Below are positions 1-19,861 of a stretch of DNA of 22,684 nt, in pieces. The notes under the pieces were generated by a model. It had not been told where the DNA came from. It made no database searches and saw only the letters and a program-made list of their open reading frames with translations. A program made the translations under genes and the position numbers. This DNA is from a virus (lineage: Duplodnaviria; Heunggongvirae; Uroviricota; Caudoviricetes). The stretch spans positions 1 to 22,684 of the IMG/VR virus record IMGVR_UViG_2711768076_000014. One strand, given 5' to 3'. Numbering within the stretch: position 1 is the stretch's first letter; each line of letters starts with the position of its first letter.

Positions 1-981
1 ATGAACGCAATAATATCGCCCGATTATTACTATGTTCTTACCGTTGCTGGTCAGTCTAATGCCATGGCGTATGGCGAAGGACTGCCATTACCGGACAGGG
101 AAGATGCGCCTCATCCCAGAATTAAACAATTAGCGAGATTTGCGCATACGCATCCCGGAGGCCCGTCATGTCACTTTAACGACATTATTCCACTGACTCA
201 CTGCCCACACGATGTTCAGGATATGCAGGGTTATCACCATCCTCTGGCAACGAATCATCAAACACAGTACGGCACCGTTGGCCAGGCACTGCATATTGCA
301 CGGAAATTACTACCCTTTATTCCTGATAATGCAGGGGTTCTCATCGTTCCATGTTGCCGTGGCGGATCGGCTTTTACCGCGGGCAGCGAAGGGACATATT
401 CAGAACGGCACGGAGCCAGCCATGATGCTTGTCGTTGGGGAACGGATACTCCGCTGTACCAGGATTTAGTCAGCAGAACGCGAGCCGCACTGGCAAAAAA
501 TCCGCAGAACAAATTCCTCGGCGTATGCTGGATGCAAGGCGAATTTGACTTAATGACCAGTGACTACGCGTCACACCCTCAACACTTTAATCATATGGTT
601 GAAGCCTTTCGTAGGGATCTAAAACAATACCATTCTCAGCTTAATAATATTACTGACGCACCGTGGTTTTGCGGCGATACCACCTGGTACTGGAAAGAAA
701 ATTTCCCTCATGCGTATGAAGTTATTTATGGCAATTATCAAAATAATGTTTTAGCCAATATTATTTTCGTCTACTTCCAGCAACAAGGTGAAAGAGGACT
801 GACGAACGCGCCTGATGAAGATCCGGACGATTTAAGCACGGGATATTACGGTTCAGCGTACCGGTCACCGGAGAACTGGACGACGGCACTGCGAAGCAGT
901 CATTTCAACACGGCAGCCCGTCGGGGGATTATTTCTGACAGGTTTGTAGAAGCAATTTTGCAGTTTTGGCGCGAAAAGTGA
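1..981 (+). CDS. nanS: Sialate O-acetylesterase (SGNH-type), NanS/YjhS-like, 326 aa
   Basis: Full ORF with ATG at position 1; N-terminal GQSNAMAYGEG resembles the SGNH/GDS catalytic serine block; sequence matches my recollection of E. coli YjhS/NanS (326 aa). Likely conserved chromosomal flank. Confidence 0.75.
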   Translation: MNAIISPDYYYVLTVAGQSNAMAYGEGLPLPDREDAPHPRIKQLARFAHTHPGGPSCHFNDIIPLTHCPHDVQDMQGYHHPLATNHQTQYGTVGQALHIARKLLPFIPDNAGVLIVPCCRGGSAFTAGSEGTYSERHGASHDACRWGTDTPLYQDLVSRTRAALAKNPQNKFLGVCWMQGEFDLMTSDYASHPQHFNHMVEAFRRDLKQYHSQLNNITDAPWFCGDTTWYWKENFPHAYEVIYGNYQNNVLANIIFVYFQQQGERGLTNAPDEDPDDLSTGYYGSAYRSPENWTTALRSSHFNTAARRGIISDRFVEAILQFWREK

Positions 982-988
982 GCGTTCA

Positions 989-1639
989 TTAATTTGATTT
1001 ATTCGCATCCATCAACGCTTTTAACTCCTCCGGCGTAAACGGTGGTTTGCGTCGGTGCAGCATCGCATGGCAATTAGGGCACACAGGAAGCAAATCATTA
1101 ACTGGATCCAGCTGGTAATCCTCTTTAATGGCTGAAAGCGGCACCAGGTGATGCACATGGATAAAGCCTTCAGCGATATCACCATAGATCTTCACCAGAT
1201 CAACGCCGCATACGTTGCATTGGCATCCATGATGTTCGACCGCTTTATCTCGGGCCTTTTTATCGCGTTCATAGCGGTTTACTGTCACCTTTATCGCCGC
1301 ACCTTCAACGTAGGTCCCCTGCGACGGCAGCTCATCCGGGAACAGAACGTCGGCTATGGGAGCCGCAGCGGCTTTATCCTGATGAATATGAAATCCCTGC
1401 TCTATGAGTAGCTTGACACATTTAGATTTTATTCCGCCGGTGAAATCCGCAGGGGTAAATTGCGTCCCCGTCATCAATGTCGCTGCGATGCCAGCAATCG
1501 CCTTCGAGGGATAACGTCGGCCATGATATTCAATTTCATACAACCGTGCAGGCTGGAACTGATGAGTTTCTCCCGCATCCCATAAATGAATAGCTTCGAT
1601 GATATACCGCCGCGGAAGATGATCGGGGAGTTTATTCAT
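989..1639 (-). CDS. McrA-like HNH endonuclease with an unassigned N-terminal domain (putative modification-dependent restriction enzyme), 216 aa
   Basis: C-terminal CQCNVCG...HVHHLVPLS...PVCPNCHAMLH resembles the EcoKMcrA HNH/zinc-finger core as I recall it; SD-like AAGGA upstream of ATG; stop lies 7 bp from the nanS stop (convergent). Confidence 0.6.
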   Translation of the reverse strand: MNKLPDHLPRRYIIEAIHLWDAGETHQFQPARLYEIEYHGRRYPSKAIAGIAATLMTGTQFTPADFTGGIKSKCVKLLIEQGFHIHQDKAAAAPIADVLFPDELPSQGTYVEGAAIKVTVNRYERDKKARDKAVEHHGCQCNVCGVDLVKIYGDIAEGFIHVHHLVPLSAIKEDYQLDPVNDLLPVCPNCHAMLHRRKPPFTPEELKALMDANKSN

Positions 1640-1718
1640 AGAGAATGTCCTTATACGTTCTCAGAACAAGCAGCAAAAAAACAAATGAGATCAAAGTAAT
1701 ATATCTTCACTTGCAGGC

Positions 1719-1952
1719 TTGAACAGCAGAAAATTTGCGAGCATGATCGCAATTATTTCACTGCCAGGGATATCAATGGCTTCCAGTAAATCGCTACAGC
1801 AGGCAATTGCCAATATAAAAATCTGGCATAAGGGTGAACAGCGCGCACCGCATAAACCATTGTTATTGCTATACGTATTAGCGGGATACCTGAATGGACA
1901 TCCACGCCTTTTCGATTATTGTAGTGGAACAGTCTACGAGGATGCAGTTTGA
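1719..1952 (+). CDS. Hypothetical small protein (77 aa), possible gene remnant
   Basis: ORF only, in the 640-bp gap between the HNH gene start and abiEii stop; no clear SD; coding status uncertain. Confidence 0.15.
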   Translation: MNSRKFASMIAIISLPGISMASSKSLQQAIANIKIWHKGEQRAPHKPLLLLYVLAGYLNGHPRLFDYCSGTVYEDAV

Positions 1953-2017
1953 AGTGAGTAAGTAAAGGTTGCTGGAAACGATCAATGCCGCCATACAATG
2001 ATATTTGAGGATCAACA

Positions 2018-2203
2018 ATGAGTAATAAAAACTACGAAAGTCACCGCAAAGCGATTGTTAGTAAAGGTATACCACCCGCTCTATTAAATAGGCTCACCAA
2101 TTCGGATGTTCAGGTGATCAATACCTTCTTAACACGAGTGAGCAAACTGGAACTATCTCAACAAGAGAAAGACTGGATCATAAAAATCATCTCTATGGTT
2201 TAG
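2018..2203 (+). CDS. Hypothetical small protein (61 aa)
   Basis: ORF preceded by GAGGA about 6 nt before the ATG; no recognisable motif. Confidence 0.25.
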   Translation: MSNKNYESHRKAIVSKGIPPALLNRLTNSDVQVINTFLTRVSKLELSQQEKDWIIKIISMV

Positions 2204-2282
2204 AGAATTTCAGAATTTCAAGTAAAGACAATGCTGCATATCAAGCATTCAGGATGGCTAGCGCTAAGCTCCTAAACCTGGA

Positions 2283-3188
2283 TTAAGCCTCATCCCATGT
2301 GATCTTTCGCTCTCCATACACCATTGGCGAAACAAACTGCTGATAGCGCATCTCGTAGAGAGGATTGTTCGCCAACTCATCCAGTCCCATTTTTAGCTCA
2401 TCAACTGGAGACGCGCAAAACTGCGGGTACTGGTTGCCGTAACGCTGAATGTCCTGCTCAATAGTTTGTTGAACAAAATCAACGAGCAGACTCATATCAA
2501 CATGACTCGTCTCAACAATACAGTTTGTATCGTAGATATGACGTACCAGCGATGCATCATCAAATCGCTCAACATCTCGCACAACTGCCGCAGTACGACG
2601 TAACATCGCCACCAGCTTTTCTGCCTGTGTGCTAATGATAGTTGCGCATGGAAACGCTGAAACAATAGCCGCTTTTCCCGTGATCCCTGTTACCAGTGAA
2701 TGAATATCCCGTAATTCAGAAGGCTCCAGTAACTTCGCTTCCATCAATTCCAGCCGGATAAAAGGACGCAAACAAGGTGCCTGCACTACTCGCTGTGGAT
2801 AACGAACAGGTATGTCATTATAACGATATTCATCCCGCGTCACTTTTGGGTAATCATCATCAAAATTGAACACACCCGATGAAGCTATTGCACTGGAAAC
2901 TGCCTGAACAATTTCTTTACGGGTATTTTTTCGCTGAGTGCGGGAAAGTGCCTGAAATGCATCCTTAGGCACCAGTTTGATATCCACATCTTCCGACATG
3001 CGATTAAGTGCGACACCTGATTTTGCCAGAGCGGTTCCTCCGGCAAACACCAATTGATGAGTATCGAACACCAGAGGTTTAAGCAATTGCAAAAGCTCAA
3101 CGATATAGTGATCTTTTTCCACAATTGCGACAGACTCAATACCAAGCGCGTCAGCCACTTCAGAAAAAAGAGTGGTTAAATCATCCAT
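2283..3188 (-). CDS. AbiEii/AbiGii-family nucleotidyltransferase toxin (type IV TA / abortive infection), 301 aa
   Basis: N-terminal FAGGTALAKSG...RMSEDVDI fits the GS...D.D nucleotidyltransferase motif of the AbiEii/DUF1814 family; start overlaps the upstream wHTH gene stop by 8 bp. Confidence 0.7.
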   Translation of the reverse strand: MDDLTTLFSEVADALGIESVAIVEKDHYIVELLQLLKPLVFDTHQLVFAGGTALAKSGVALNRMSEDVDIKLVPKDAFQALSRTQRKNTRKEIVQAVSSAIASSGVFNFDDDYPKVTRDEYRYNDIPVRYPQRVVQAPCLRPFIRLELMEAKLLEPSELRDIHSLVTGITGKAAIVSAFPCATIISTQAEKLVAMLRRTAAVVRDVERFDDASLVRHIYDTNCIVETSHVDMSLLVDFVQQTIEQDIQRYGNQYPQFCASPVDELKMGLDELANNPLYEMRYQQFVSPMVYGERKITWDEA

Positions 3189-3576
3189 TTAATCTGCTGT
3201 TCCCTACAGATAATACGCGTTTAAAACGCCGGGGGGTTTTTATCTCGGGTGAAGCTGGGATCTGCGTAGAAGTACCGCTATTGTATGCCTGCGTTGCGCC
3301 AGCAAAACGATAGCGTACTTTCAGGCGTTCCAGCGTTTCGACAATCACCGCTGAAGAGCCTCCGGGAGCCGCTGGCATTACCTTGCCTGTAATACCGTTC
3401 CGCCGTGCTTTGGTATACACGCCATAACCAACCTTCAACAGTTGCCCTTCCCTGACAAGCTCGCGCAATACCCGACCAACCTGATCGTAGCCTGCAATAT
3501 CTTTAAAGTCGTCACGAGTGAATACGTAACGTTTAGAACGTTTCAGTCGTGACTGAATGCGTGCTTTTATCGTCAT
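3181..3576 (-). CDS. AbiEi-like antitoxin / winged-HTH transcriptional regulator (about 131 aa from the ATG with SD)
   Basis: MTIKARIQSRLKRSKRYVFTRDDF...VGRVLRELVREGQLLKVGYGVY resembles the AbiEi N-terminal wHTH; GGAGG sits 5 nt before the ATG ending at 3576; the six-frame ORF extends to 3645 but the upstream in-frame ATGs lack an SD. Confidence 0.6.
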   Translation of the reverse strand: MTIKARIQSRLKRSKRYVFTRDDFKDIAGYDQVGRVLRELVREGQLLKVGYGVYTKARRNGITGKVMPAAPGGSSAVIVETLERLKVRYRFAGATQAYNSGTSTQIPASPEIKTPRRFKRVLSVGNSRLNG

Positions 3577-3603
3577 ATTCGCCTCCAGAGTCATTGCATA
3601 AAG

Positions 3604-3646
3604 AGTAGCAAAAATACGACATTTTAGATAGCAAACATACGACATT
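3604..3646 (-). promoter_or_regulatory. Two tandem 20-bp direct repeats (period 23 bp) upstream of abiEi; putative operator/promoter
   Basis: Plus-strand agtagcaaaaatacgacatt (3604-3623) and gatagcaaacatacgacatt (3627-3646) match at 18 of 20 positions, immediately upstream of the SD-supported abiEi start. Confidence 0.4.
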
Positions 3647-4479
3647 CATTTTGCTGATAACGCTGACGGAAAGTGCTTCGCCACGATATCATTCATCTTA
3701 TCCACCAGATCCAGTCGCTTGAAAGTGATATGCCCACTGCCTTTCTGGTAATAGCGGATGACAAATAAATCGTCATCAAATACCTGTTCATGCGGGTGAG
3801 CACTAACGAAGTCCATAAACCGAATCGCAACATCATGCCGGTTATCGGGAATGGCCTTCCCATCCAGCAGATAGAACATACGCTCCAGATCGGCAAGCTG
3901 ATCTCGCCGCCAGCCCCAGTTCAGGCTGTAGCCCCATCTGTCATGCTTCACCAGATTGTTAACGATAATCTTCTTACCGAAATAACAGGGATTATTGGTT
4001 TTGTAGTCCCAGCTCAATCCCTTAAATACATTGATAACCCCACGTTCGAAAACGTCCTGCTTATTGTGGTGAAGTTGTTCAAAGGTACTCAGAATGTTGG
4101 CTTCGCTAATCGCCGGGAGATCGCCCTCTTCCAGGTTCTTTGCCCACTGACTGCGGGCTTCGGCATCCATCAGAGTCAACATCCCAGACTTCAGCATGAG
4201 ATCGCGCCAGATGCTGCGATCGATATTTCGGGTGATCACCGGCATCGCTTTGTCGGTTGGCTGCATCAGCCAGCAGTCAAAGGCATATCCATTTCGCATT
4301 GCCCAGGTTCCAGCCACATCACCGCCAATACTGGATGTCAGGCTGGAGATATCATCAAGTTTTTGGATTAACGCCGCTATCTGGTTCAGTGCACTATCAC
4401 GTCCTGTGACGATACGCTCGATACTGGTCGAGCAAATTAGTTCGTTATGATCGGTTAAGACTTCAGCTTCTGTCTGCAT
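3646..4479 (-). CDS. Hypothetical protein, 277 aa, no family assignable
   Basis: Long ORF filling the space between the hsdM divergent promoter region and the abiE operator; no catalytic motif recognised. Confidence 0.6.
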   Translation of the reverse strand: MQTEAEVLTDHNELICSTSIERIVTGRDSALNQIAALIQKLDDISSLTSSIGGDVAGTWAMRNGYAFDCWLMQPTDKAMPVITRNIDRSIWRDLMLKSGMLTLMDAEARSQWAKNLEEGDLPAISEANILSTFEQLHHNKQDVFERGVINVFKGLSWDYKTNNPCYFGKKIIVNNLVKHDRWGYSLNWGWRRDQLADLERMFYLLDGKAIPDNRHDVAIRFMDFVSAHPHEQVFDDDLFVIRYYQKGSGHITFKRLDLVDKMNDIVAKHFPSALSAK

Positions 4480-4784
4480 AATCTTTCATCCGTAAAAAAT
4501 ACACTCGCCGTTAGTAGCAGACGAATTATCCACTGGTGAAAGATTGGGTAAATAATGAGATTGAAAATCGGGAAGGTGACTCGCAATAAATTATCTGATC
4601 ACCTACGGATGGGCGATGGGCATATAAAGTAGCCTCCTGACTCAAGCGGTGAATGCTGAGTAAGATGCACTAACAATCTGGTACTGAATCCCCTCCTCAC
4701 CGTCATACAAATCTGAAAAACCAAACAACTTCCGGTAAAATCCCGGCAAAAGCCGACGTTAAAAACACATTCAAAGGATAAAAA

Positions 4785-6337
4785 ATGACCAGTCTTCAGC
4801 AGCGCGCGGAGCTTCATCGCCAAATCTGGCAAATTGCTAACGATGTCAGAGGTTCGGTCGATGGATGGGATTTTAAGCAATACGTTCTGGGCGCGCTTTT
4901 CTACCGTTTTATCAGCGAAAATTTTTCCAGCTATATTGAAGCCGGTGATGACAGTATCTGTTATGCGAAACTGGATGACAGCGTAATTACTGATGACATT
5001 AAAGACGATGCCATCAAAACTAAAGGCTACTTCATCTACCCCAGTCAGCTTTTCTGCAACGTAGCTGCGAAAGCAAATACTAATGACAGACTGAATGCAG
5101 ATTTAAACAGCATCTTCGTTGCTATCGAAAGTTCTGCTTACGGTTATCCTTCAGAAGCTGACATCAAAGGTTTGTTTGCTGATTTCGATACCACCAGTAA
5201 CCGCCTGGGTAACACCGTTAAAGATAAAAATGCCCGCCTGGCTGCGGTTCTGAAAGGGGTTGAAGGGTTAAAACTTGGTGACTTCAACGAACATCAGATT
5301 GACCTGTTCGGTGATGCCTATGAGTTCCTGATTTCTAACTATGCGGCAAATGCCGGTAAGTCAGGCGGTGAGTTCTTTACACCGCAGCACGTCTCCAAGC
5401 TGATTGCACAACTGGCTATGCACGGGCAGACCCACGTTAACAAAATCTACGACCCGGCAGCGGGTTCCGGCTCACTGTTGTTGCAGGCGAAAAAACAGTT
5501 TGATAACCATATCATCGAAGAAGGCTTTTTCGGTCAGGAAATCAACCATACGACCTATAACCTGGCGCGTATGAACATGTTTTTGCACAACATCAACTAC
5601 GACAAGTTTGATATCAAGCTTGGCAATACGCTGACTGAACCGCACTTCAGAGATGAAAAACCGTTTGATGCCATCGTTTCTAACCCGCCGTATTCGGTGA
5701 AATGGATTGGCAGCGATGACCCGACGCTGATTAACGATGAGCGTTTTGCCCCGGCTGGCGTTCTGGCCCCCAAATCCAAAGCTGACTTTGCGTTTGTATT
5801 ACATGCGCTGAACTATCTTTCGGCCAAAGGTCGTGCTGCGATTGTCTGCTTCCCGGGTATTTTTTACCGTGGCGGCGCAGAGCAGAAAATCCGTCAGTAT
5901 CTGGTCGATAATAACTATGTCGAAACCGTAATTTCACTGGCTCCGAACCTGTTCTTTGGCACCACCATTGCCGTAAACATTCTGGTTCTGTCCAAACATA
6001 AAACGGATACCAACGTTCAGTTTATTGATGCCAGCGAACTGTTCAAAAAAGAGACCAACAACAATATCCTGACCGATGCCCATATCGAACAAATTATGCA
6101 GGTATTCACCAGCAAGGAAGATGTTGCTCATCTGGCAAAATCTGTCGCGTTTGAAGCCGTTGTAGCGAATGACTATAACCTGTCGGTGAGCAGCTATGTA
6201 GAATCGAAAGATAACCGCGAAATTATCGATATTGCTGAGCTGAATGCAGAACTGAAAACTACGGTCAGCAAAATCGACCAGTTGCGTAAAGATATCGACT
6301 CAATTGTGGCAGAGATTGAAGGTGACGAGGTGCAGGG

Positions 6338-6341
<4 letters not shown>
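4785..6341 (+). CDS. hsdM: Type I restriction-modification N6-adenine DNA methyltransferase subunit HsdM, 518 aa
   Basis: SAM-binding [10 protein letters not shown] and catalytic NPPY ([12 protein letters not shown]); N-terminal HsdM-type domain; 4-bp ATGA overlap with hsdS. Confidence 0.9.
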
Positions 6342-7543
<1,202 letters not shown>

Positions 7544-7665
7544 TTGACCATTGCTACCGATCGGGCCACCTTAACACCCGGTCAGTATATAGACTATTTT
7601 TTTACGCGCCGGAAGTCACTCTTAACGCCCTTCCGGCTCTTGCCAGGCGGCACAAAGGATGCGCT

Positions 7666-10600
7666 ATGACTCATCAAACACACACCATTGCTGAATCCAA
7701 TAACTTTATCGTCCTTGATAAGTACATCAAAGCTGAGCAAACAAGCGACAGCTACCAGAGCGAATCGGACCTGGAACGTGAACTGATTCAGGACCTGCGG
7801 AATCAGGGTTATGAATTTATTTCGGTAAAATCACAGTCAGCGATGCAGGCCAACGTTCGGGAACAGCTTCAGAGCCTCAATGGTGTGGTGTTTAATGACA
7901 GCGAGTGGCGGCGTTTCACGGAGCAGTATCTGGATAACCCGAGCGATGGCATTCTGGATAAGACCCGTAAAATCCATATCGACTATATTTGCGACTTTAT
8001 TTTTGATGACGAGCGTCTTGAGAACATCTATTTGATAGATAAAAAGAATCTCATGCGCAATAAGGTGCAGATTATCCAGCAGTTTGAGCAGGCGGGTTCT
8101 CATGCTAACCGTTATGACGTCACGATCCTGGTTAATGGCTTACCACTGGTACAAATCGAACTGAAAAAGCGCGGCGTGGCGATTCGTGAGGCTTTCAACC
8201 AGATACATCGTTACAGTAAAGAGAGTTTTAACAGCGAAAATTCCCTGTTTAAGTATCTGCAACTGTTTGTCATTTCTAACGGCACCGATACCCGTTACTT
8301 TGCCAACACCACAAAGCGCGATAAAAACAGTTTTGACTTCACCATGAACTGGGCGAAATCAGACAACACGCTGATTAAAGACCTCAAAGATTTTACCGCT
8401 ACCTTTTTCCAGAAACATACTCTGCTTAATGTTCTGGTGAACTACAGCGTGTTCGATATTAGCCAGACGCTACTGGTGATGCGACCGTACCAGATTGCCG
8501 CTACCGAACGGATCTTATGGAAAATCAACAGTTCCTATAAAGCGAAAAACTGGTCTAACCCCGAAAGCGGTGGCTTTATCTGGCACACTACCGGTTCCGG
8601 TAAAACACTGACCAGCTTTAAAGCCGCGCGCCTGGCAACAGAACTGGACTTTATTGATAAAGTCTTCTTTGTGGTCGACAGGAAAGACCTCGATTACCAG
8701 ACGATGAAGGAATATCAGCGTTTTTCCCCAGACAGCGTCAACGGCTCGGAAAATACCGCAGGCCTTAAACGAAATCTGGATAAGGACGATAACAAAATTA
8801 TCGTCACCACTATTCAGAAACTTAATAACCTGATGAAAGCAGAAAGCGACCTGCCTGTATACAATCAGCAAGTGGTGTTTATATTTGATGAATGTCACCG
8901 CAGCCAGTTTGGAGAAGCGCAGAAAAATCTGAAGAAGAAATTCAAACGCTATTATCAGTTTGGTTTTACCGGCACACCTATTTTCCCGGAAAACGCTTTA
9001 GGCTCAGAAACGACCGCCAGCGTATTTGGTCGTGAATTGCATTCATATGTGATTACCGATGCGATTCGTGATGAAAAAGTGCTCAAATTCAAGGTGGACT
9101 ATAACGATGTGCGGCCCCAGTTTAAATCTTTAGAGACAGAAACCGACGAGAAAAAACTGAGTGCGGCTGAAAATCAGCAGGCGTTTCTTCATCCCATGCG
9201 TATACAGGAAATTACGCAATATATTCTGAATAACTTCCGCCAGAAGACCCACCGTACTTTCCCAGGTTCCAAAGGCTTTAATGCCATGCTGGCAGTGAGT
9301 AGCGTGGATGCCGCGAAAGCCTATTACGCGACGTTTAAACGGTTACAAGAGGAAGCAGCTAATAAATCGGCTACCTATAAACCGCTGCGTGTTGCGACAA
9401 TCTTCTCCTTTGCCGCCAATGAAGAACAAAATGCCATTGGTGAAATTTCCGATGAAACTTTTGATACCAGCGCAATGGACAGCAGTGCTAAAGAGTTTCT
9501 TGACGCTGCAATTCGTGAGTATAACAGCTATTTTAAAACTAACTTCAGCACCGACAGTAACGGTTTTCAGAACTACTATCGTGATTTAGCCCAACGGGTT
9601 AAAAATCAGGATATCGATCTGTTAATTGTCGTTGGGATGTTTTTAACCGGCTTCGACGCTCCAACATTGAACACGCTATTCGTCGATAAAAACTTGCGTT
9701 TTCACGGCCTGATGCAGGCATTCTCCCGCACCAACCGCATTTATAACGCCACTAAAACCTTCGGTAACATCGTCACTTTCCGGGATCTGGAACGCTCAAC
9801 CATTGATGCCATAACGCTGTTTGGTGATAAAAATACCAAAAATGTAGTGTTAGAAAAGAGTTATGCAGAGTATATGGAAGGCTTTACTGATGCTGCCACT
9901 GGTGAAGCTAAACGCGGCTTTATGGCAGTAGTTTCAGAACTGGAACAACGGTTCCCTGACCCTGCCAGTATTGAAAGTGAAAAAGAGAAGAAAGACTTCG
10001 TTAAACTGTTTGGTGAATACCTGCGTGCCGAGAACATCCTGCAAAACTATGATGAATTTGCCACGCTGAAAGCCCTGCAACAAATCGATCTTAGCGATCC
10101 TGTTGCGGTAGAAAAATTCAAAGAAGAACATTATGTGGATGATGAAAAGTTCGCTGAATTACAAACGATTCGTCTCCCTGCTGAACGCAAGATTCAGGAT
10201 TATCGTTCTGCCTATAACGATATTCGTGACTGGCAGCGCCGCGAGAAAGAGGCTGGCAAAAAAGAAAAGTTAACTACTGACTGGGATGACGTGGTTTTTG
10301 AAATCGATTTGCTGAAGTCTCAGGAAATAAACCTGGATTATATCCTTGGACTGATTTTCGAACACAACAGACAAAACAAAGGTAAGGGCGAAATGACCGA
10401 AGAGGTCAAGCGCTTAATTCGTTCGAGCCTTGGGAACCGTGCCAAAGAAGGTCTGGTGGTCGATTTTATTCAACAAACAAACCTGGATGATTTGCCGGAT
10501 AAAGCCAGCATCATTGACGCGTTTTTTACCTTTGCTCAACGCGAACAGCAACGTGAAGCAGAAGCATTGATCAAAGAAGAAAATCTCAATGAAGAGGCGG

Positions 10601-10782
10601 CGAAACGCTATATTCGCACGTCTTTAAAACGCGAATACGCCACCGAAAATGGCACGGAATTAAACGAGACATTGCCAAAACTCAGTCCGTTAAATCCGCA
10701 ATATAAGACGAAAAAACAGACGGTTTTCCAGAAGATCGTCGCGTTTATTGAGAAGTTTAAAGGTGTAGGCGGGCAGATATAA
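7666..10782 (+). CDS. hsdR: Type I R-M restriction subunit HsdR (helicase-nuclease), 1038 aa, EcoR124-like
   Basis: Endonuclease-type D...ELK block ([20 protein letters not shown]), Walker A TGSGKT, DECH box ([10 protein letters not shown]); length and N-terminus [20 protein letters not shown] match my recollection of EcoR124I HsdR; separated from hsdS by 122 bp, suggesting its own promoter. Confidence 0.9.
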
Positions 10783-10964
10783 TGTATTAATCCGAACCTG
10801 ATCTGGCAGATAGCTGTCAGATCAGGACTGAGCTAATACAAATTAATATCGAACCGAAAATACCAACGCCTGTACCAACATTTTTCGTTTGCGATGGGTT
10901 GGAATTGGTTAGCCCTGAGAGAGTTAAAATAGCGAGAAAGATAGGTAACTAACGGATTTCAGAC

Positions 10965-10992
10965 ACAAAAAAAGCCGCTCTTGAGCGGCTCG
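10965..10992 (-). terminator. Rho-independent terminator downstream of the retron RT gene
   Basis: Stem agccgctc / gagcggct with ttga loop, followed on the minus strand by a run of 7 or more U; sits between convergent hsdR and RT genes. Confidence 0.55.
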
Positions 10993-11006
10993 ATTTGCAT
11001 ACGATG

Positions 11007-11022
11007 TGGTGCGAAGGCCGGA
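11007..11022. other. Degenerate att-like copy of the leuX tRNA 3' end (putative distal attachment site of the P4-like element)
   Basis: tggtgcgaaggccgga matches the reverse complement of the leuX 3' end (TGGTGCCGAAGGCCGGA, recalled from memory) with one 1-nt deletion; P4 is known to integrate at leuX. Confidence 0.3.
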
Positions 11023-11262
11023 ATAGAATAACTATATAACTCATTGAACATGATGATAAAAATTTTATAGCTTATGACTTGTGCCCCATTTTGTGCCCCC
11101 AACAAAATCTTATTGTTGCTAACTAGCACAATAAATGAATTAGCAAGATAGAGTTGCCTAGTTAGGTTCCGTCTTACAGAGCCTAACCAGAACAACCAAA
11201 CCTCTGAACCAACCTTGCGCAAGCTAGATAAAGTCATGCTGATTTATTAGGACAACAAGCTA

Positions 11263-12210
11263 TTAAATTTCATATTTTGAAATTTCGCTGATTACATCAT
11301 CCCCATATTTCTTAATCATGGAGGCAAAGAATTTATGTTCAATAAATTTCGCATAGCCTAATTCTCCTTTAAGGGTTAGAATTTCTTTCTCAGATAAAAC
11401 CCCACACACATAATAATGTATTTTACTTCTTAAAAGACGCTTTCTATCACGACCTAAAGACAAATAACCATCAGTCGTAATAGTTACACCAGTTACATGT
11501 CTATTAAACTTCCTTGAGGTAAAAACTGTTTTCTCATGGTTTATTTTAATATTCCTAAGATTTACTACGTTAAGAACTTCCCTTACTAACTTAGGAACAT
11601 CAAATAAAGCTCCTTTGACTTTGGTGCTAAACGTAAGATCATCAGCATACCTTGAGTAGGTAATACCCAAATCCTTGCATCTTTTCGATATTTCCTCATC
11701 GAAGAAATACATTACTGTATTTGAAATAATGGGAGAAGAAGGTGCTCCAACACTTAGGCGTAACGGGCTATTTCTTCTTAACTTCCAGAAGAAAAGATTT
11801 TTAAGAACAAAGATATCAGTATCAGTTAGTTCAACGCCATAATCTTTTAAGACAGATAAAAGATTATGGGGTTTGATACTCATAAAAAAGTTTTTAAAAT
11901 CCATTTTAAGCAAATAATCATTATTACAATGCATTAACGCATTAGATCTAATACTTTTATCGGCTTCATAAGCGAAAGCATTTTCATGAACTTTCAAATT
12001 AGCCAACATATGATTGATTACTACCTTCTGTAAGGCTTTAACTTGCCTAGCTGGTTGTGCAATTAATCTATATCCATTACCATTTCTTTTGGCGATAGGA
12101 TAAATTTTATATCTGCGTGGAATAGTAACAATATACCTTTTAGCCTCTTCTTCGCTAAGAAAAAGACCTTTTGAAATATAACTTAGCAACTCCATTCTAA
12201 GCCCCTCCAC
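11263..12210 (-). CDS. Retron-type reverse transcriptase, 315 aa
   Basis: RT blocks YRLIAQPARQVKALQKVV, LKMDFKNFFMSI, SVGAPSSPIISN, YSRYADDLTFS (YADD catalytic box) and VTGVTIT (retron VTG signature); size as for Ec73/Ec86-class retron RTs. Confidence 0.85.
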   Translation of the reverse strand: MEGLRMELLSYISKGLFLSEEEAKRYIVTIPRRYKIYPIAKRNGNGYRLIAQPARQVKALQKVVINHMLANLKVHENAFAYEADKSIRSNALMHCNNDYLLKMDFKNFFMSIKPHNLLSVLKDYGVELTDTDIFVLKNLFFWKLRRNSPLRLSVGAPSSPIISNTVMYFFDEEISKRCKDLGITYSRYADDLTFSTKVKGALFDVPKLVREVLNVVNLRNIKINHEKTVFTSRKFNRHVTGVTITTDGYLSLGRDRKRLLRSKIHYYVCGVLSEKEILTLKGELGYAKFIEHKFFASMIKKYGDDVISEISKYEI

Positions 12211-13183
12211 GCACGATATTGATTTGATTTAGAGCATTTTTCCTTTTTTTTGCAGTCTCGTCCATATCTTTAGCATCCATACTTAAGTAAGATTGTCGGA
12301 TTGCAACCTTAATATTCATAGAATCCTTTATTTTACCACTAGCACTGATACCAAATTTAAGTTTACTCTCTCTATGCCCTCGGGAATAGAAGTAGTCTGT
12401 ACCACTGTAAGATAATGATGAGGTTAATTTCATCTTTTCAAGCAAATAAAGTAAACGAGTTATTATTTTTTGTGGCACATCTATATCCATACAGTATAGT
12501 GCCCACTCTATTTCGCTTTTCTTGATTGGTTCTGATAAAAGGATTATTTCGTAAATCAATATAGCTAGGTGCCCAGTATTTTCAGGGTTATATCGCTCCG
12601 TTTTTTTTACACGTTTTAATCTAGAATGAATATCATGGTAGATAAGCTCAACCTCATCATATTTCATACGATCCGATTTTGGCCATGGATAAACTGATAC
12701 TGAGGCCTCATCTATTTTTTTAAGATACTCCAAAGGGCCTAAATATATAAAAGAAGATCTAGCAGGAATATTTTTTCGTTCATTTCCCTCAATCTCCTCA
12801 AATGGTGCGACTACATGCAATTTTTGAGCTAGAGACTTCCTATTAACAAATAATCCAAGCTCAACTAACGAACCTGCACTTTCTAAACAGATAACAACTA
12901 ATGTTGAAATATTTGCAATATCATCTTCAAAGCTCATTAGATCTGAATATGCCCCCTCTCTGAAGTAGTCATGGAAGTTCTCAGCTAAAATAAGAGAATC
13001 TGACAATTCAGGTTTGTGGCCTGCTACATAAGTAAATATGTGGTCTCGTACACTCATTGGAGTGGAATTTATCGGCCCACCACAAACAAAAATAATAGGA
13101 GGCATGAACTGAACAGTGAAATTTGAATATTTCAAATCTCCAAACTGCTCTTGTAATGCATTCATATATGCAGAATCACTCAC
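12197..13183 (-). CDS. Retron accessory/effector protein (type II-like, possibly nucleoside deoxyribosyltransferase-like plus DNA-binding), 328 aa
   Basis: Lies between the msd hairpin and the RT gene and overlaps the RT start by 14 bp; AT-rich like the RT gene; family assigned by context only. Start is GTG at 13183 or ATG at 13165. Confidence 0.6.
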   Translation of the reverse strand: MSDSAYMNALQEQFGDLKYSNFTVQFMPPIIFVCGGPINSTPMSVRDHIFTYVAGHKPELSDSLILAENFHDYFREGAYSDLMSFEDDIANISTLVVICLESAGSLVELGLFVNRKSLAQKLHVVAPFEEIEGNERKNIPARSSFIYLGPLEYLKKIDEASVSVYPWPKSDRMKYDEVELIYHDIHSRLKRVKKTERYNPENTGHLAILIYEIILLSEPIKKSEIEWALYCMDIDVPQKIITRLLYLLEKMKLTSSLSYSGTDYFYSRGHRESKLKFGISASGKIKDSMNIKVAIRQSYLSMDAKDMDETAKKRKNALNQINIVRGGA

Positions 13184-13204
13184 CCTTGTGACCCCCTACT
13201 CCAA

Positions 13205-13480
13205 AAGAAAAGGTGGCTAACCAGCCACCTTCGACCCCTTTACCTAAAGGATGCGCTTTAGACTTTCAGCAAGATCCTGAATGGAACGCAGTGGCATGAA
13301 GGATCTTGCTGAAAGTGCTAAAGCGCAACCCTAAATGTCCACAATAAATTAGTGTCTGGCGAAACGCCCGACAAGGATAAACCTGTTATCCCGCGCGTAA
13401 AGGTAGGGTTAGGATAGCAAAAGATGCGAGATTTTCAATAAGTAAGCGTACTGGCTGCCAGCAACCACCTAAACCATTGA
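13205..13480 (-). ncRNA. Retron msr-msd non-coding RNA (approximate bounds)
   Basis: Upstream of the effector gene: short stem-loops (ggataa/ttatcc 13374-13390; ggcg/cgcc about 13354-13364; aacccta/tagggtt) typical of msr, plus a 27-bp near-perfect hairpin at 13254..13325 typical of msd; a1/a2 repeats not found with confidence. Confidence 0.5.
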
Positions 13481-13810
13481 CATTTAAACAAAAATAAATC
13501 TAACAATTGAAAGCAATACCTTATTGAATACAGCATTCTTATATCTCTCTTGATATCGCAACATCACAATTATCACCGTTAGTGCGGGCAGCCCCGCACG
13601 CCTGCCCGCTTCGCTTAACAGACTGGTTTTCATGCACCTCATTAATCGTCTCAGAAGCCAGCACACAAGGGTTTTCTCGTCAAAAATGGTGCATAAGACT
13701 CATGCGTTTTCATGCGCCATAGACATGCACTCATGCGCTCTCATGTCAGCCAGGAAAAGGGGGTAAAAAATCCCGGTACTGGACCGGGATTACGTGGGCG
13801 TTCTTTCTAA

Positions 13811-14083
13811 TCAGACAGGAATCTGCTGACGGCTTGACAGTTTTGACGCGGAGCCATAGCGATTGAGCGTTTTCTGTTGTTTTTCCGGGGATTGTGCTTT
13901 GTCTGATAGCTGTTCATTGCGCCGGGGTTTCATGATTATCTTATCCACACTCTCCAGTGCCGTAAATGTGCAGGAACATTCCAGATTCTGGCACTGATAC
14001 CACGAGCGTTTAACTGACGGAGCTTCATAGGCTGCTGTTCTGGCGTGTGCAACTGTACCGCATTCCGGACATTTAAGTGCCAT
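13811..14083 (-). CDS. Ogr/Delta-family zinc-finger late-gene transcriptional activator, about 90 aa
   Basis: MALKCPECG...YQCQNLECSCTF matches the Cys4 Ogr/Delta pattern; AGGAG sits 8 nt before the ATG at 14083 (the six-frame ORF extends to a GTG at 14092). Confidence 0.8.
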   Translation of the reverse strand: MALKCPECGTVAHARTAAYEAPSVKRSWYQCQNLECSCTFTALESVDKIIMKPRRNEQLSDKAQSPEKQQKTLNRYGSASKLSSRQQIPV

Positions 14084-14088
14084 TAATA

Positions 14089-14640
14089 TCACTCCTGTAT
14101 ATCGTTAATGTCATTCAGGCGTTGCTGAAAACGCAGATGTTGTGCCGGGGTGTAAGAACCCTGGCAATCACGAATCATCCCGGGGTCAGGCATCAAACCG
14201 GATTCATCCAGGATCTCACGATAATCCCCGGCAATTTCAGGCGGTGTTATTGCCAGCTGGCGAACCAGAGCACTGCGTAATATACGGGACGCAACGTCAA
14301 CCCCTCCGCGCCCCTTCAGGAACGGAGCCAGTGCAGATGTCAGGGCTGCCCCATTCGCCTGCATAAAATTGCTGAGAGCGGCTTCTGTGCAGGCCTCCAT
14401 CAGTAAATGCTGCGAGTAAATGCATTCGCGCGCAGCACAGTTAATTTGCCATTTCAGCACATCCAGACGTTCCCGCAGTAATTCGAGCTGTCGGGCATAA
14501 TCTGCTGGTTTTTCTGTGGCAGCGAGGAGAGATGTTATCTGTTGTTCAACGGCTTTTCGGCTCTCATTATGTCCGGCCCACAGAATACGGGCATTCCGAA
14601 AACTGGTAAGTGCCTGGTCAGGCGTGCCTCGGGCCGTCAT
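14089..14640 (-). CDS. psu: Psu-like polarity-suppression / capsid-decoration protein, 183 aa
   Basis: Blocks LKWQINCAAR, FMQANGAALTSALAPFL and YTPAQHL resemble my recollection of P4 Psu (190 aa); ATGA overlap with the upstream gene. Confidence 0.55.
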   Translation of the reverse strand: MTARGTPDQALTSFRNARILWAGHNESRKAVEQQITSLLAATEKPADYARQLELLRERLDVLKWQINCAARECIYSQHLLMEACTEAALSNFMQANGAALTSALAPFLKGRGGVDVASRILRSALVRQLAITPPEIAGDYREILDESGLMPDPGMIRDCQGSYTPAQHLRFQQRLNDINDIQE

Positions 14641-15380
14641 ACTGCTTTCTCCTTCTCAGCAAGTTCCTGACGAACCTTAATTTTATGCATAGCTGCCGGA
14701 GAGAGTTGATTACTGAAATCCAGACGCGCCGCATAATCCGGGGCAACTCCCGCCAGTTTAAACACCGGGTCCTGCTCAGGCATCGCATCGTTAGCCAGAG
14801 CCGGTCTGGTGATATGTTTATGAATAAAGTCTTTCAGCACTGTGTCCGGGTCATTAACTGAATTCACCACACCCACAACGGCACTGGCTTCCCGGCCCAT
14901 TGTGGATTTAAGCAGGCTCAGCGTCTGAATAAGCGCTTTTCCATGCGACTGCATAAAATCCTCCCAGATTTGTTTTGCGCGAATATCCACAAGAATGTTA
15001 TGCGCGTGGATATACTTTCCGGCTAATTCTGCAGCTTTCTGCGGCAAAAGTGCATTTTCGCTTTCCTGAGCCGCCAGCAGCTCATCAAAATCCTCAAGCG
15101 TTTCTCGTCCCAGCGCAATTTCCGTGCGCAGTTTTTTCATTTCCTTTGAGACCACGCCCTGACTTTCACGAAACAGCGTGCGCCACTCCTCATTCAGTGT
15201 GTTCGTCGTGGCTTCCATTTCAGCGCGACGCTGGCGGATTGTCGCAATATTATCCGCTGCCGCTTTCTGCTGACGACGTGCTTCAAGCCATGCGTTTCTG
15301 GCTGTGTTCATGGTTTCCAGTGCCCGCTGCGTTACAGCCGGAAAAGTGGAAAGGTTGTTATTCACTGCGGTGTTGTTCAT
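14637..15380 (-). CDS. Sid-like external scaffold (capsid size determination) protein, 247 aa, tentative
   Basis: Size close to P4 Sid (244 aa), Ala/Glu/Arg-rich helical character, first gene of the operon with Psu and Ogr/Delta, preceded by AGGAG and TGT-N12-ACA dyads; no direct motif match recalled. Confidence 0.4.
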   Translation of the reverse strand: MNNTAVNNNLSTFPAVTQRALETMNTARNAWLEARRQQKAAADNIATIRQRRAEMEATTNTLNEEWRTLFRESQGVVSKEMKKLRTEIALGRETLEDFDELLAAQESENALLPQKAAELAGKYIHAHNILVDIRAKQIWEDFMQSHGKALIQTLSLLKSTMGREASAVVGVVNSVNDPDTVLKDFIHKHITRPALANDAMPEQDPVFKLAGVAPDYAARLDFSNQLSPAAMHKIKVRQELAEKEKAV

Positions 15381-15415
15381 GACTTCTCCTGTCGGGTTGG
15401 TTCGTTACGTCAATT

Positions 15416-15471
15416 GTGTCGTGGCTGACACAAGCACACTATCGGTGCTCAGTGTGTGGTGGCTGGCACAA
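15416..15471 (-). promoter_or_regulatory. Two TGT-N12-ACA dyads (putative Ogr/Delta-dependent late promoter of the sid-psu-delta operon)
   Basis: tgtGTCGTGGCTGACaca at 15416-15433 and tgtGTGGTGGCTGGCaca at 15454-15471, 36 to 82 bp upstream of the sid-like ATG; P2/P4 late promoters carry this element. Confidence 0.5.
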
Positions 15472-15558
15472 CGGACGCTTGCGGTTATTCAGACGTGGCT
15501 ATGAAAGCCAGCCAGATAAAAATGCCCTCTGTTTCAGTCTGCTTTATGTCCCTGATGC

Positions 15559-15747
15559 GGTGGAACAGGTGAAACATGTGTTACAGCTTTGTTTTATAAG
15601 GCATTTATATACACTGCACCGGTGGAACATCGCGGGTAACAAGGTGGAACAGCGGATTGGCTGGCGTTACATCTGTTCCACCTCACTATTTCAGAAGGTG
15701 GAACAGGTTCAGCCCTGTAAAATACGGTTGTTCCACCTGTTTCACCT
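15559..15747. repeat. Iteron array: at least 6 copies of GGTGGAACAG / CTGTTCCACC in both orientations (putative ori or crr)
   Basis: Copies at 15559, 15621 (variant), 15643, 15673 (inverted), 15697, 15728 (inverted), plus tgtttcacc at 15739; immediately downstream of the primase gene; resembles the P4 alpha-binding octamer TGTTCACC (from memory). Confidence 0.5.
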
Positions 15748-15780
15748 GTTACCCTTAATAAATAAGACTCACGCAAAGCC

Positions 15781-18453
15781 TTAACCCGGCACCTCGCTGT
15801 TGAAGACATAGAGCCTGCGGGGATTCATCTCTGGCGGGCGAATGGTTGTCTGGAGTTTGCCATCAGTGGAGGGCAGCAGGTATCCACGATCTGCGCACAG
15901 ACGCGCCACCTTGCGCGGGTCAAATCCCCTGCAGATTTCTTTCCAGCCGGACGGCATGACATAGAACGTAGTGACAGCTTCCGTGCCCTGCGCGGTACTG
16001 CCTTTCTCCACCCTGCGCCAGCCCACCATATTGCCGGGGCGGTTGCGCTCGTCATACCAGTCTGCAAAGCGGCTGTACTGATTCGCGGTAAAGAAACTGC
16101 GAACCTGCTCCAGTGCGGCGATATCTTCCTGATTGGCGGTGTGCCCGCGATCTTTCAGCCATGCGTTCAGGCAGACGCGGGTTGCCCGCAGTGCTTCACC
16201 CTCAGGCCAGCCGGTGATACCCAGACGGGTTGCCAGTTCACCTGCCATCGCCACCAGAGCAAAGCGGTTCACAGCCCGGCCCACCTGATTGCCTGCATCT
16301 TTCGGAGTCAGGGCGGCAGCATATTCCTTCATCAGCGATTTTGCCTGTGCCGTTAGTCCGTTAAGATCAGCGGTCAGTGCTTTCAGCCACTCCCGGAACG
16401 GCGAACCGTAGTAGCAGGACGTGGCCCATTCAAGATGCTCTGCCAGAGCCTTGCCGCTGTCGAAGCCGTGCAGCTCCTCAAAAACGCCAAACTTCCCGGA
16501 ATCGCTGGGGATCTGGATCATCCTGACTTCCATCCCGGCAAAAGTACGCTCACCGGCCTTTGCCGCATGTTCGGTCAGAGACAACTCGCCAGTTGAAAAG
16601 AACAACAGGCGCCAATGCTTACGGGTACGCAGCTCACCGTCCGTACCGGCACGGCCCTTGCCCTGACCGTTTGCCAGCATGTAGGCGATATTGCCTGCCT
16701 CGCGTCCGTCAACTTCCCGGATCTCATCAAGCATCATGGCGGCATCGTTGCGGCGGCTGGCGCATCCCTCCAGCGCGTTGCCGGTGGCCCGCCATGTCTG
16801 CCAGTAGTCAGGCCCGCCGCAGACGGAGGTTGCCGCTTTCATGGTGGTGGTCTTACCGTCTGTCGATTCCCCTTTGAGGTGGTAGCCGCCGCCGTCCATA
16901 CCAACCAGCCGTAACAGTGGTGCAGCAAAGGCCAGGCTGACAGCAAATGCCACGCGGGAGTTGCCGGTACAGTAGCGGGATACATGCTCCCGCCATTCCT
17001 CTGTTGTGCCCGACACGCGGAAATCACGCCCCTGCACGGAAGTGGTCTGGAGAATGACACCCTCTGCACCTTCACCGCTGACCTCATCCTGCAGGACGTA
17101 AACCTGACCATGCCAGCCAGTACGACTGACGCAGGTCACGCGGCGTTCCGGTTTACACAGTGAGATATATTCCATCAGGCGTGCGCGTGCCTCACCGGTG
17201 GTGCTGATATAAGACAGCCCGTTAACCAGCAATACCCGGCGCAGTTCCTCACCACTGCCGCTCAGCATTTCCATCGGCATCGCCCAGCGGCGACACTCAC
17301 CCCACGTATCTTCCCATTCCAGCAGTCGTCCGAAGTTACCGCCATCGGCATCGCAGGTGATTGCCGTCACGCGCAGCGGGCTGCATATTTTGACGTTCTG
17401 GATCTCCGTCTCACCGTTGCGCTGTACCTGCTTTTCATACCAGAGATATTCCTGGGTAAGACGGAACCCGTGCGGCAGTTGCGTGCGGCCCTCCCCGCAC
17501 AGCACCAGACCGTTACGAAAGGCTTCACGGGCGCGGGTAATACCGTGCTCCCGATGGAAGTCATTCCAGTCGGCCTTAATCTCTCCCGGTGGCAGCGTCA
17601 TCCAGCCGCCAACAGCTTTTGCCGCCCGTTCAGCAAAGGCTCTGCCGGGATTCTCACCCCCGTCCTGAAAATCGTTATCACCGGCGATGATAATTTTTAC
17701 CTCAGGCCAGCGTGCCCGCAGCGACTGCGCCACATTGGGCAGGTTGCCCGCAGATATGGCAGCCACTACGCATCCGGCAGTGAGCTGACTTACCGTCAGC
17801 GCCGTAGCGTAACCTTCGGTAATCACCACCTGTACCGGTGGTTCAGACGGTAACGGGCTGAGCGACACAAACGCGCCTTTCATCGTGCTGCCGGGCAGTA
17901 TGCTTTTTTCACCCGTCGGGGCGATAAGCTGTGCACCAGTCACGGCTCCGGTGTTGGTCGTGAGTGGTAACAGCAGGGAACCGGCAGGAAAATCCTTACC
18001 GCTGATATGCTGCACGCTTCCGGTCAGAGAGGCCGGGTATCCGGCGAACCCTTTTCCTGTCAGATAGGCGCTTTCTCCCGTGTGGCTCTCTTTCATCAGC
18101 GCCGCCACGGTAAGACCCATGTCGCGTTTAGGGGCTTTTTTTCTGGCAGGCTTAACAGGCAGTTCCTGCACATCCGGCACATTAAGCACCTGCGCCACCT
18201 CCTGCGCAGCCTTTCTGACGCTGTAACCGGTTACGAGCTTAACCAGATCCAGACCGTCACCATTGCCACACTGGCTGCAGATCCACGTCCCGCGCCCGTC
18301 AAGGTCATCAAGGCGAAAACGATCCTTGCCCCCACATTTCGGGCAGGGACCGTGCCTGCCGTTTTCAGGTACATCAATACGCAGCATCTGGAGAATAACG
18401 GGCCATTTCCCCCGTGCGGCGGCTGAAATCTGCGTAACCGTCTGTATTGTCAT
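15781..18453 (-). CDS. Phage/plasmid primase-helicase (P4 alpha-like), 890 aa
   Basis: N-terminal zinc-binding CPKCGGKDRF...CSQCGNGDG, Toprim-like IIAGDNDFQDGGENPG, P-loop GESTDGKTT; largest ORF of the element. Confidence 0.85.
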   Translation of the reverse strand: MTIQTVTQISAAARGKWPVILQMLRIDVPENGRHGPCPKCGGKDRFRLDDLDGRGTWICSQCGNGDGLDLVKLVTGYSVRKAAQEVAQVLNVPDVQELPVKPARKKAPKRDMGLTVAALMKESHTGESAYLTGKGFAGYPASLTGSVQHISGKDFPAGSLLLPLTTNTGAVTGAQLIAPTGEKSILPGSTMKGAFVSLSPLPSEPPVQVVITEGYATALTVSQLTAGCVVAAISAGNLPNVAQSLRARWPEVKIIIAGDNDFQDGGENPGRAFAERAAKAVGGWMTLPPGEIKADWNDFHREHGITRAREAFRNGLVLCGEGRTQLPHGFRLTQEYLWYEKQVQRNGETEIQNVKICSPLRVTAITCDADGGNFGRLLEWEDTWGECRRWAMPMEMLSGSGEELRRVLLVNGLSYISTTGEARARLMEYISLCKPERRVTCVSRTGWHGQVYVLQDEVSGEGAEGVILQTTSVQGRDFRVSGTTEEWREHVSRYCTGNSRVAFAVSLAFAAPLLRLVGMDGGGYHLKGESTDGKTTTMKAATSVCGGPDYWQTWRATGNALEGCASRRNDAAMMLDEIREVDGREAGNIAYMLANGQGKGRAGTDGELRTRKHWRLLFFSTGELSLTEHAAKAGERTFAGMEVRMIQIPSDSGKFGVFEELHGFDSGKALAEHLEWATSCYYGSPFREWLKALTADLNGLTAQAKSLMKEYAAALTPKDAGNQVGRAVNRFALVAMAGELATRLGITGWPEGEALRATRVCLNAWLKDRGHTANQEDIAALEQVRSFFTANQYSRFADWYDERNRPGNMVGWRRVEKGSTAQGTEAVTTFYVMPSGWKEICRGFDPRKVARLCADRGYLLPSTDGKLQTTIRPPEMNPRRLYVFNSEVPG

Positions 18454-19114: not shown

Positions 19115-19145
19115 CGTGGATTACTCCGTTTTCAGCGGTATTTTG

Positions 19146-19674: not shown

Positions 19675-19750
19675 CTTCGTTACCTCATTTAGCGGATTGG
19701 TCAGAAGCCCGGTTAGTGTTGCTGCACTGTCGGGCTTCGCACTCACAAGG

Positions 19751-19840: not shown

Positions 19841-19861
19841 CTAACGCGAGGAGATCCAGTA

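Follow-up and report, generated by a model that had tools for sequence, protein, structure and literature searches.

A probable two-layer arrangement of defence genes at the leuX hotspot of Escherichia coli: a chromosomal block beside a P4-like satellite with a retron

The question raised by the 22,684-nucleotide stretch of DNA filed as IMG/VR virus record IMGVR_UViG_2711768076_000014 (Caudoviricetes; the whole stretch is called the window below) is whether the defence genes crowded into about 12.5 kb of it, at positions 982-13500, form one unit or were brought together piecemeal. The region contains a protein with an HNH nuclease domain, a module of the AbiE type, a protein of the DUF4942 family, a type IC restriction-modification (R-M) operon and a retron, and the initial annotation described it as a defence island in which the systems might be co-selected and an unassigned open reading frame (ORF) would have an elevated prior of being an immune gene. 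The genes that it listed were found again in the ORF map and in hidden Markov model (HMM) scans with PADLOC, Pfam and NCBIfam. The interpretation favoured here, with a probability of about 0.85, is that 982-13500 is the leuX defence hotspot #37 of E. coli in a two-layer state, in which a chromosomal block stands beside a later-inserted P4-like satellite that carries the retron.

The first layer (982-11007) is a chromosomally fixed block of immune genes of about 10 kb without an integrase, in which a gene for an HNH protein with a head domain (head-HNH), a dead gene for a phosphorothioated-DNA-binding restriction endonuclease (PT-REase), AbiE, DUF4942, the type IC R-M operon and DNA from downstream of leuX follow one another. 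The second layer, from 11008 to approximately 22849 and past the window end at 22684, is a P4-like satellite of about 11.8 kb in the 3′ end of leuX. In strain AL.H8 (L007), DNA with 100% identity to window 1-11022 runs into an intact leuX followed by ahr and yjgR, from which it follows that 982-11007 is chromosomal and that the satellite was inserted later. An unoccupied leuX after the block was also found in ESBL15, 22-245, 15A and 6EVA. The comparison showed that the satellite integrated site-specifically at the 3′ end of a still-intact leuX, duplicating the 3′ end of the tRNA gene. The segment 10783-11007 matches the strains with an unoccupied leuX exactly, and the leuX terminator lies directly left of attR; attL with leuX falls about 165 bp past the window end, and leuX adjoins int in two related loci (L001, L002). 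With attL projected from strain 005008, the element measures 11.84 kb (22849-11008), which fits the capsid limit of approximately 12 kb quoted for P4 (PMC9122126). One ORF of 92 amino acids (aa) at 10959-11237, on the minus strand, spans attR, matches no family and is unannotated in the related loci shown; it was rejected as most likely no gene.

The position of the retron within the satellite was deduced from an alignment with a second P4-like satellite, found in AMSHJX01, to which the window shows 88% identity over 13584-14083. At about 13583 the conserved sequence gives way to variable sequence, a retron here and Dsr2 in AMSHJX01, and the cargo hotspot delimited in this way comprises 11024-13583, that is 2.56 kb. 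Conservation up to this point followed by unrelated cargo is the published cos-adjacent signature of P4, so that the retron is satellite cargo and the other four items are not. The earlier placement of the defence genes between nanS and the satellite core is therefore right for the block, and wrong for the retron, which lies inside the satellite, to the right of attR (11008-11023). Since P4-like satellites are known to have defence cargo near cos and the block directly abuts this satellite, the whole of 982-13500 might be taken for the contents of one unusually large satellite hotspot; this is barely conceivable, as all of the DNA to the left of attR is that of satellite-free strains and the resulting 22-kb element would exceed the P4 capsid capacity of about 12 kb.

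Each layer also occurs without the other. The block adjoins the Dsr2-carrying satellite in AMSHJX01, and the same retron satellite is found at leuX without the block in strain 005008 (99.8% identity over 10954-22684). The frequency of the parts was determined by megablast in 5,426 complete E. coli genomes, with a coverage of at least 80% required for a count. The whole window was found in none of them (best coverage 60%), the block 982-10960 in 87, at least 14 of which carry it nearly identical, and the retron in 156. The pair of AbiE and DUF4942 was present in 134 genomes, the DUF4942-hsdM junction in 298, the junction of hsdR with the leuX flank in 315, and the region of the HNH gene and the PT-REase remnant (982-2282) in 880, with partial matches in 3189. 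All components are at least 99% identical to DNA in RefSeq genomes.

By chance alone about 2.5 genomes (87 x 156 / 5426) would be expected to carry block and retron jointly, and the contiguous arrangement was found in none; this is no significant deficit and certainly no excess, and thus nothing indicates co-selection between the layers, contrary to what had been proposed for the systems. The same figures bear on the view that the five items are a single mobile defence island, moved and selected as a unit. It draws on their adjacency within 12.5 kb and on the 10-kb block, which at least 14 genomes have inherited intact (about 100% identity). The complete combination is nevertheless contiguous in 0 of the 5,426 genomes, a zero which does not differ significantly from the 2.5 expected, the block is found beside an empty leuX or the Dsr2 satellite, the retron satellite occurs without the block, and the modules of the block are exchanged one by one, as seen in E2348/69 and strain 755. 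Such an island is very unlikely and has already been largely refuted.

The turnover of the modules is evident from the strains compared. In E2348/69 the HNH gene is followed by an intact PT-REase gene, McrBC, DUF4942 and a type I R-M system; in strain 755, AbiE and DUF4942 are followed by CbtA, YeeU, RadC, DUF932 and more genes up to BREX; EC195 and ETEC4075 contain CP4/KpLE2-like genes and fec; in 2017.15.01CC a truncated nanS and HNH gene, an intact PT-REase gene and a membrane protein gene stand directly beside the same retron satellite; and in 005008 the satellite is followed by a second, decayed integrase. The modules are swapped singly: AbiE against McrBC, the type IC R-M operon against the CbtA/RadC backbone, and the retron against Dsr2. 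The stack represents independent acquisitions at a recombination and integration hotspot, and the evidence does not point to its transfer or selection as a unit. The comparison of the nanS-leuX interval between strains, which had been suggested as a check, showed a highly variable region, so that invariance, which would have spoken against a defence island, is clearly not found. The term defence island is justified insofar as the locus is dense and variable, and misleading insofar as it is a composite of two independent layers and not one island.

Both parts of the phenomenon are already known. The gene leuX anchors hotspot #37 of Hochhauser et al., and among the 41 defence islands of E. coli this one is occupied most often, in 97% of isolates (PMC12707154), which bears out the description of the locus as a genuinely dense one; type IC R-M systems (4%), BREX, Dnd and DISARM were recorded among its contents (EcoSal Plus 2025, PMC12707154), and it is among the integration sites of P4-like satellites (Hochhauser et al. 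2023, PMC10121019). The antiviral hotspot of P4-like satellites is adjacent to cos, with a mean cargo of 2.6 kb and a capsid limit of about 12 kb (Rousset et al. 2022, PMC9122126), and a retron as cargo has been known since phiR73, which carries Ec73 (Inouye et al. 1991, cited in PMC9122126). The present locus is the same as hotspot #37, with multiple systems, replacement from strain to strain, and type IC and P4-like satellites as recorded occupants; it does not differ in kind, only in a combination that is contiguous in 0 of 5,426 complete genomes. The block differs in being without the integrase which the review (PMC12707154) describes as the usual anchor. The anchors in the related loci (L001-L012) are leuX, ahr and yjgR on the right and nanS, nanM, nanC and fim on the left, and the window itself contains both nanS and the leuX-derived attR. 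Within it are clustered AbiE, the type I R-M system and the retron, with strong PADLOC or NCBIfam matches, a weak HNH candidate and the dead PT-REase gene. The coordinates are collected in Table 1.

Table 1. Features of the window, with the evidence for each
Feature	Position	Strand	Evidence
nanS (sialate O-acetylesterase), conserved chromosomal hotspot flank	1..981	+	Pfam SASA
head-HNH protein, 216 aa, two domains	989..1639	-	Pfam HNH E=1e-4; PADLOC mREase_IV E~6e-6
PT-REase remnant, first ~48 codons	1776..1919	+	pseudogene annotation in relatives
hypothetical ORF, 61 aa	2018-2203	+	ORF map
AbiE cassette	2214..3616	-	breakpoints at 2213 and 3616
AbiEii nucleotidyltransferase toxin	2283-3188	-	PADLOC E=1e-124; Pfam AbiEii
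AbiEi/DUF6088 antitoxin-regulator	3181-3645 (ORF; annotated 3181-3576)	-	PADLOC E=3e-53; Pfam DUF6088, AbiEi_4
DUF4942 protein, 277 aa	3646..4479	-	Pfam E=1.5e-68
type IC R-M operon, complete	4785..10782	+	Pfam; PDB comparison
hsdM	4785-6341	+	full-length ORF
hsdS	6338-7543	+	full-length ORF; three TAEL repeats
hsdR	7666-10782	+	full-length ORF; Pfam EcoR124_C
original DNA downstream of leuX	10783..11007	-	alignment; L007 100% identical over 1-11022
leuX terminator (inside 10783..11007)	10972-10991		terminator scan
attR core, TGGTGCGAAGGCCGGA, duplicated leuX 3′ end minus one C	11008..11023	.	alignment to intact leuX of AL.H8 and attL of L001
retron reverse transcriptase (St85/Ec73 family, type II-A1)	11263..12210	-	NCBIfam retron_St85_RT 334 bits (cut-off 235); PADLOC RT_II-A E=8e-121
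retron effector, nucleoside-deoxyribosyltransferase-like (NDT) toxin, RcaT/STM3845 family	12197..13183	-	STM3845_fam 224 bits (cut-off 100); PADLOC NDT_II-A E=2e-87
retron non-coding RNA (ncRNA)	13197..13404	-	msr 13404-13338, msd 13333-13197
promoter-like site before the retron ncRNA	13438-13411	-	promoter scan
region between delta and cargo, inferred to hold cos	13584..13810	-	alignment with Dsr2 satellite of AMSHJX01
P4-like core	13811..22684	-	Pfam
delta	13811-14092	-	Pfam Ogr_Delta
psu	14089-14640	-	Pfam Psu
sid-like	14637-15380	-	second Pfam Psu match
alpha primase-helicase	15781-18453	-	Pfam DUF927/Toprim_3/Zn_Ribbon_Prim
DUF5375	18450-18833	-	within satellite core
icd-like	19498-20232	-	within satellite core
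212-aa low-GC ORF	20754-21392	-	phrog_30524
integrase	21422-22684	-	Pfam Phage_integrase, Arm-DNA-bind_3

As regards the origin of the block, it is most likely the residue of a decayed leuX island of the CP4/KpLE2 type, which we infer from the backbone status of DUF4942 and from the occurrence of CP4-type genes at the same HNH/PT-REase border in other strains. The block would descend from such an island by retention of its distal end, that is DUF4942 and a variable cargo slot, and the island interior together with the integrase would have been replaced by the R-M cassette. It could also be supposed that the block is ancestral chromosome, and that homologous recombination at conserved flanks (HNH/PT-REase, DUF4942 and the leuX flank) exchanged the AbiE and type IC R-M cassettes individually within it. 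Sharp breakpoints beside conserved genes at 1919, 2213, 3616, 4494 and 4782/10781 and junctions conserved in about 300 genomes are consistent with this supposition. On the other hand, islands of the CP4/SRL type that have an integrase end with DUF4942 as their terminal backbone gene, in the same orientation to leuX, and in other strains the CP4-type genes for RadC, an ArdB-like antirestriction protein and DUF932 adjoin this same HNH/PT-REase border. An ancestral chromosome is therefore improbable as the source of the block, although the two accounts are compatible and decay of an island followed by cassette exchange is conceivable.

Several points have to be set against the two-layer reading and the descent of the block from an island. 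An integrase is absent from the block, and a search of the window that allowed up to 3 mismatches gave no second att remnant resembling leuX; both facts also count in favour of cassette exchange in ancestral DNA. The genome counts are coverage thresholds that ignore phylogeny and sampling bias. A 19-mer of the P2/P4 cos site had no match within 3 mismatches, and cos was placed by conservation only. For the retron RNAs, Rfam returned nothing at the gathering threshold and matches only at the E-value threshold, where msr (RF00170, 42 bits, E=2.7e-6) and the msd region (STnc400, RF02058, 55 bits, E=4e-10) were both below the gathering score. Finally, the defence activities of all of the systems are predicted from sequence.

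DUF4942 is the gene on which both the origin of the block and the expectation of further immune functions turn. In the genome comparison (E2348/69, strain 755 and others) it was kept in place while its neighbours change, and in strain 755 it adjoins CbtA, YeeU and RadC. It corresponds to orf56/L0010 of the SRL pathogenicity island of Shigella, which is located distally, after YeeU, YeeV and YeeW. An exhaustive HMMER search gave 2193 relatives, mostly stand-alone proteins, and a C-terminal S-adenosylmethionine (SAM)-dependent methyltransferase domain is present in five of the six long ones; the protein also matches a PHROG annotated as a DNA methyltransferase. PADLOC gave no match, and sequence and profile searches gave no significant relative in the PDB; the AlphaFold2 model, built with 23 close homologues, was unusable (mean pLDDT 45). 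The best reading is that DUF4942 is probably a distal backbone gene of islands of the CP4/SRL-PAI/KpLE2 type and, as a protein, a domain associated with methyltransferases in its solo form. It matches no known defence family and does not behave as variable immune cargo. Because it is constant and belongs to the island backbone, guilt by association is weak in its case, and the elevated immune prior proposed for the unassigned ORF is weakened accordingly. As a speculation, the solo protein could serve the island by modulating restriction-modification or by evading it.

Two further observations concern the same family. In relatives of 460-559 aa (P0321, P0344, P0348, P0387, P0399), DUF4942 is the N-terminal partner of SAM-dependent methyltransferase domains of the N6 type, and the solo gene stands divergent from the type IC hsdM in approximately 300 E. 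coli genomes.

The type IC R-M operon was one of the three systems of the initial annotation, with AbiE and the retron, whose assignment proved solid (PDB 2w00, PADLOC and NCBIfam, respectively). The match of HsdR to that of EcoR124I (PDB 2w00) gave 2250 bits over all 1038 residues (1-1038), and the central TAEL repeat region of HsdS, with three repeats, is a type IC hallmark; together these establish that the type IC call is correct and that the operon is complete. HsdS matches that of EcoR124II with 236 bits only, in the conserved parts, which indicates that the target-recognition domains differ; the recognition sequence presumably differs from that of EcoR124II as well. The system is thus like EcoR124I/II in its near-identical HsdR, in three TAEL repeats as in EcoR124II (the HsdS of EcoR124I has two) and in having plasmid-borne close relatives, and unlike them in its own target-recognition domains and its chromosomal location beside leuX. 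The cassette 4782-10781, from the start of hsdM to the stop of hsdR, was found on 628 plasmids at about 95% identity, and these shared boundaries indicate exchange as a precise cassette. Most of the differences between the window and strains 6EVA and E2348/69 lie inside hsdS (about 6390-7410), which suggests that specificity may be switched in an otherwise conserved operon.

The AbiE cassette fills a variable slot downstream of DUF4942, which in E2348/69 is occupied by McrBC. The two genes overlap by 8 bp, and the PADLOC profiles are covered at 1-128 of 131 (AbiEi) and 1-294 of 307 (AbiEii). The module resembles the AbiE type IV toxin-antitoxin system of abortive infection in being an overlapping pair with both HMMs matched end to end, and AbiEi differs in being the short DUF6088-type form of 131-154 aa.

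The retron is a complete type II-A1 set, with the NDT effector between the ncRNA and the reverse transcriptase (RT). The motifs YADD and VTG are present in the RT translation, which probably begins with the Met of codon 6. The msr and msd matches are adjacent and in the expected order upstream of the effector; STnc400, matched by the latter, is taken by us to be the msd region of Salmonella St85. Type II-A1, which is defined by NDT-like effectors, includes St85/Sen2, Vc81 and Ec73 (Mestre et al. 2020, PMC7736814). The present retron shares with Retron-Sen2 (St85), a tripartite toxin-antitoxin system (PMC7736814; bioRxiv 10.1101/2020.06.22.160168), the order msr-msd, effector, RT, the RT and effector models above their cut-offs and the match of msd to Salmonella STnc400. 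It differs in being satellite-borne.

In comparison with these systems, the HNH protein at the nanS border is less clearly assigned. Residues 24-87 resemble the head domain of ScoMcrA, a phosphorothioate-dependent type IV enzyme (PDB 5zmm, residues 29-93; E=3e-5), the C-terminal HNH domain matches PDB 6ghc (E=4.5e-4), and the AlphaFold2 model (pLDDT 78.7) had ScoMcrA as its top Foldseek match (probability 1.00, E=7e-3). The catalytic motif Cys4/HH/N/H is intact and its columns are invariant in the alignment. Pfam revealed no SBD, SRA, EVE/YTH or other modification-reading domain, and of ScoMcrA only the head region was matched. Compared to ScoMcrA and EcoKMcrA, the protein has an N-terminal domain resembling the ScoMcrA head and an HNH domain resembling McrA/TagI, and differs in its size of only 216 aa and in having no SBD or SRA detected, so that membership of type IV is not established. 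Of the original label, type IV HNH enzyme, the intact HNH nuclease remains, and the type IV part is left with weak matches and no modification sensor. A type IV-like nuclease is possible and unproven, a lead rather than a finding, and the gene is a quasi-fixed border gene of the hotspot.

The PT-REase remnant (1776-1919, plus strand), which was overlooked by the initial annotation, diverges from the HNH gene, and homology stops at 1919-1923 of the window. The gene is annotated as an incomplete pseudogene in three related loci (L003, L004, L007) and is full length (873 bp) in L001 and E2348/69. The divergent head-HNH and PT-REase genes are widely found as a pair beside nanS, at the edge of the hotspot (989-1952 here; L001 3989-5065; L008 8585-10244), the losses in which differ: the PT-REase gene is cut short here and the HNH gene in 2017.15.01CC. 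The two together resemble a split ScoMcrA, and the head-HNH protein could be one half of a split, ScoMcrA-like, phosphorothioate-dependent pair with the adjacent SBD gene, here a solo nuclease. As for the neighbouring nanS, it is annotated beside nanM, nanC and fim in L004 and L006. It is an intact ORF of 326 codons in the window, and is intact by annotation in EC195 and 6EVA; in AMSHJX01, AL.H8 and E2348/69 it is annotated as a truncated pseudogene, for which both damage and a difference in annotation are possible.

From what is known of the families, the type IC enzyme would cleave unmethylated incoming DNA as a first line, and AbiE and the retron would serve as abortive second lines after restriction has failed. 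In AbiE, a GTP-binding nucleotidyltransferase toxin would be held in check by AbiEi, and in the retron the NDT toxin would be restrained by the complex of RT and multicopy single-stranded DNA (msDNA) until a phage perturbs the msDNA. Against competing phages, the retron would also protect its satellite and the P2-type helper, as was argued for P4 cargo (PMC9122126). If anti-restriction proteins of a phage disable the type IC enzyme, AbiE or the retron could step in as a backup. It is unlikely, on the whole, that either this backup or undescribed, hotspot-tied roles of the two unassigned proteins, DUF4942 and head-HNH, apply.

The window provides a clean and datable example of how a defence stack builds up at the leuX hotspot: an older residue without an integrase persists in place, the tRNA site is preserved, and a satellite limited by its capsid contributes one system. 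Exact boundaries of the element follow from comparing empty with occupied sites, and they are useful for genome annotation and for cloning the satellite or the retron. Adjacency should not be taken for co-selection, and guilt by association is unsafe for the backbone genes of an island as opposed to its variable cargo. Beyond annotation the significance is small.

The satellite shares int, alpha, sid, psu, delta and integration in a tRNA gene with P4 and phiR73; phiR73 is integrated at selC, the present element at leuX. As in the P4 hotspot and phiR73, one short variable system follows the conserved sequence after delta, here of 2.56 kb against a mean of 2.6 kb, and the retron is of type II-A1, the same subtype by classification as Ec73 of phiR73. 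A megablast search of the INPHARED phage collection with the satellite gave no match. The order of the genes is int, regulatory genes, alpha, sid, psu, delta, cargo and attR. Unlike canonical P4, the satellite has its module of sid, psu, delta and cargo downstream of alpha, with attR and not int next to the cargo; the canonical order is seen in AMSHJX01 (L003 26000-38400) and differs from that of 11008-22684. Satellites of the present order could escape a search which, like the method of Rousset et al., looks for the integrase downstream of psu. The 212-aa ORF between the integrase and the regulatory region has a GC content of approximately 30-34%, compared to 55-60% in alpha; it has no match in Pfam or PADLOC and matches phrog_30524 (E=1e-108), a group without known function. 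The cluster of the protein comprises 1315 members across the Enterobacteriaceae, and in strain 2017.15.01CC the gene is interrupted by IS1. Satellites of this type may have a second accessory slot, marked by this ORF.

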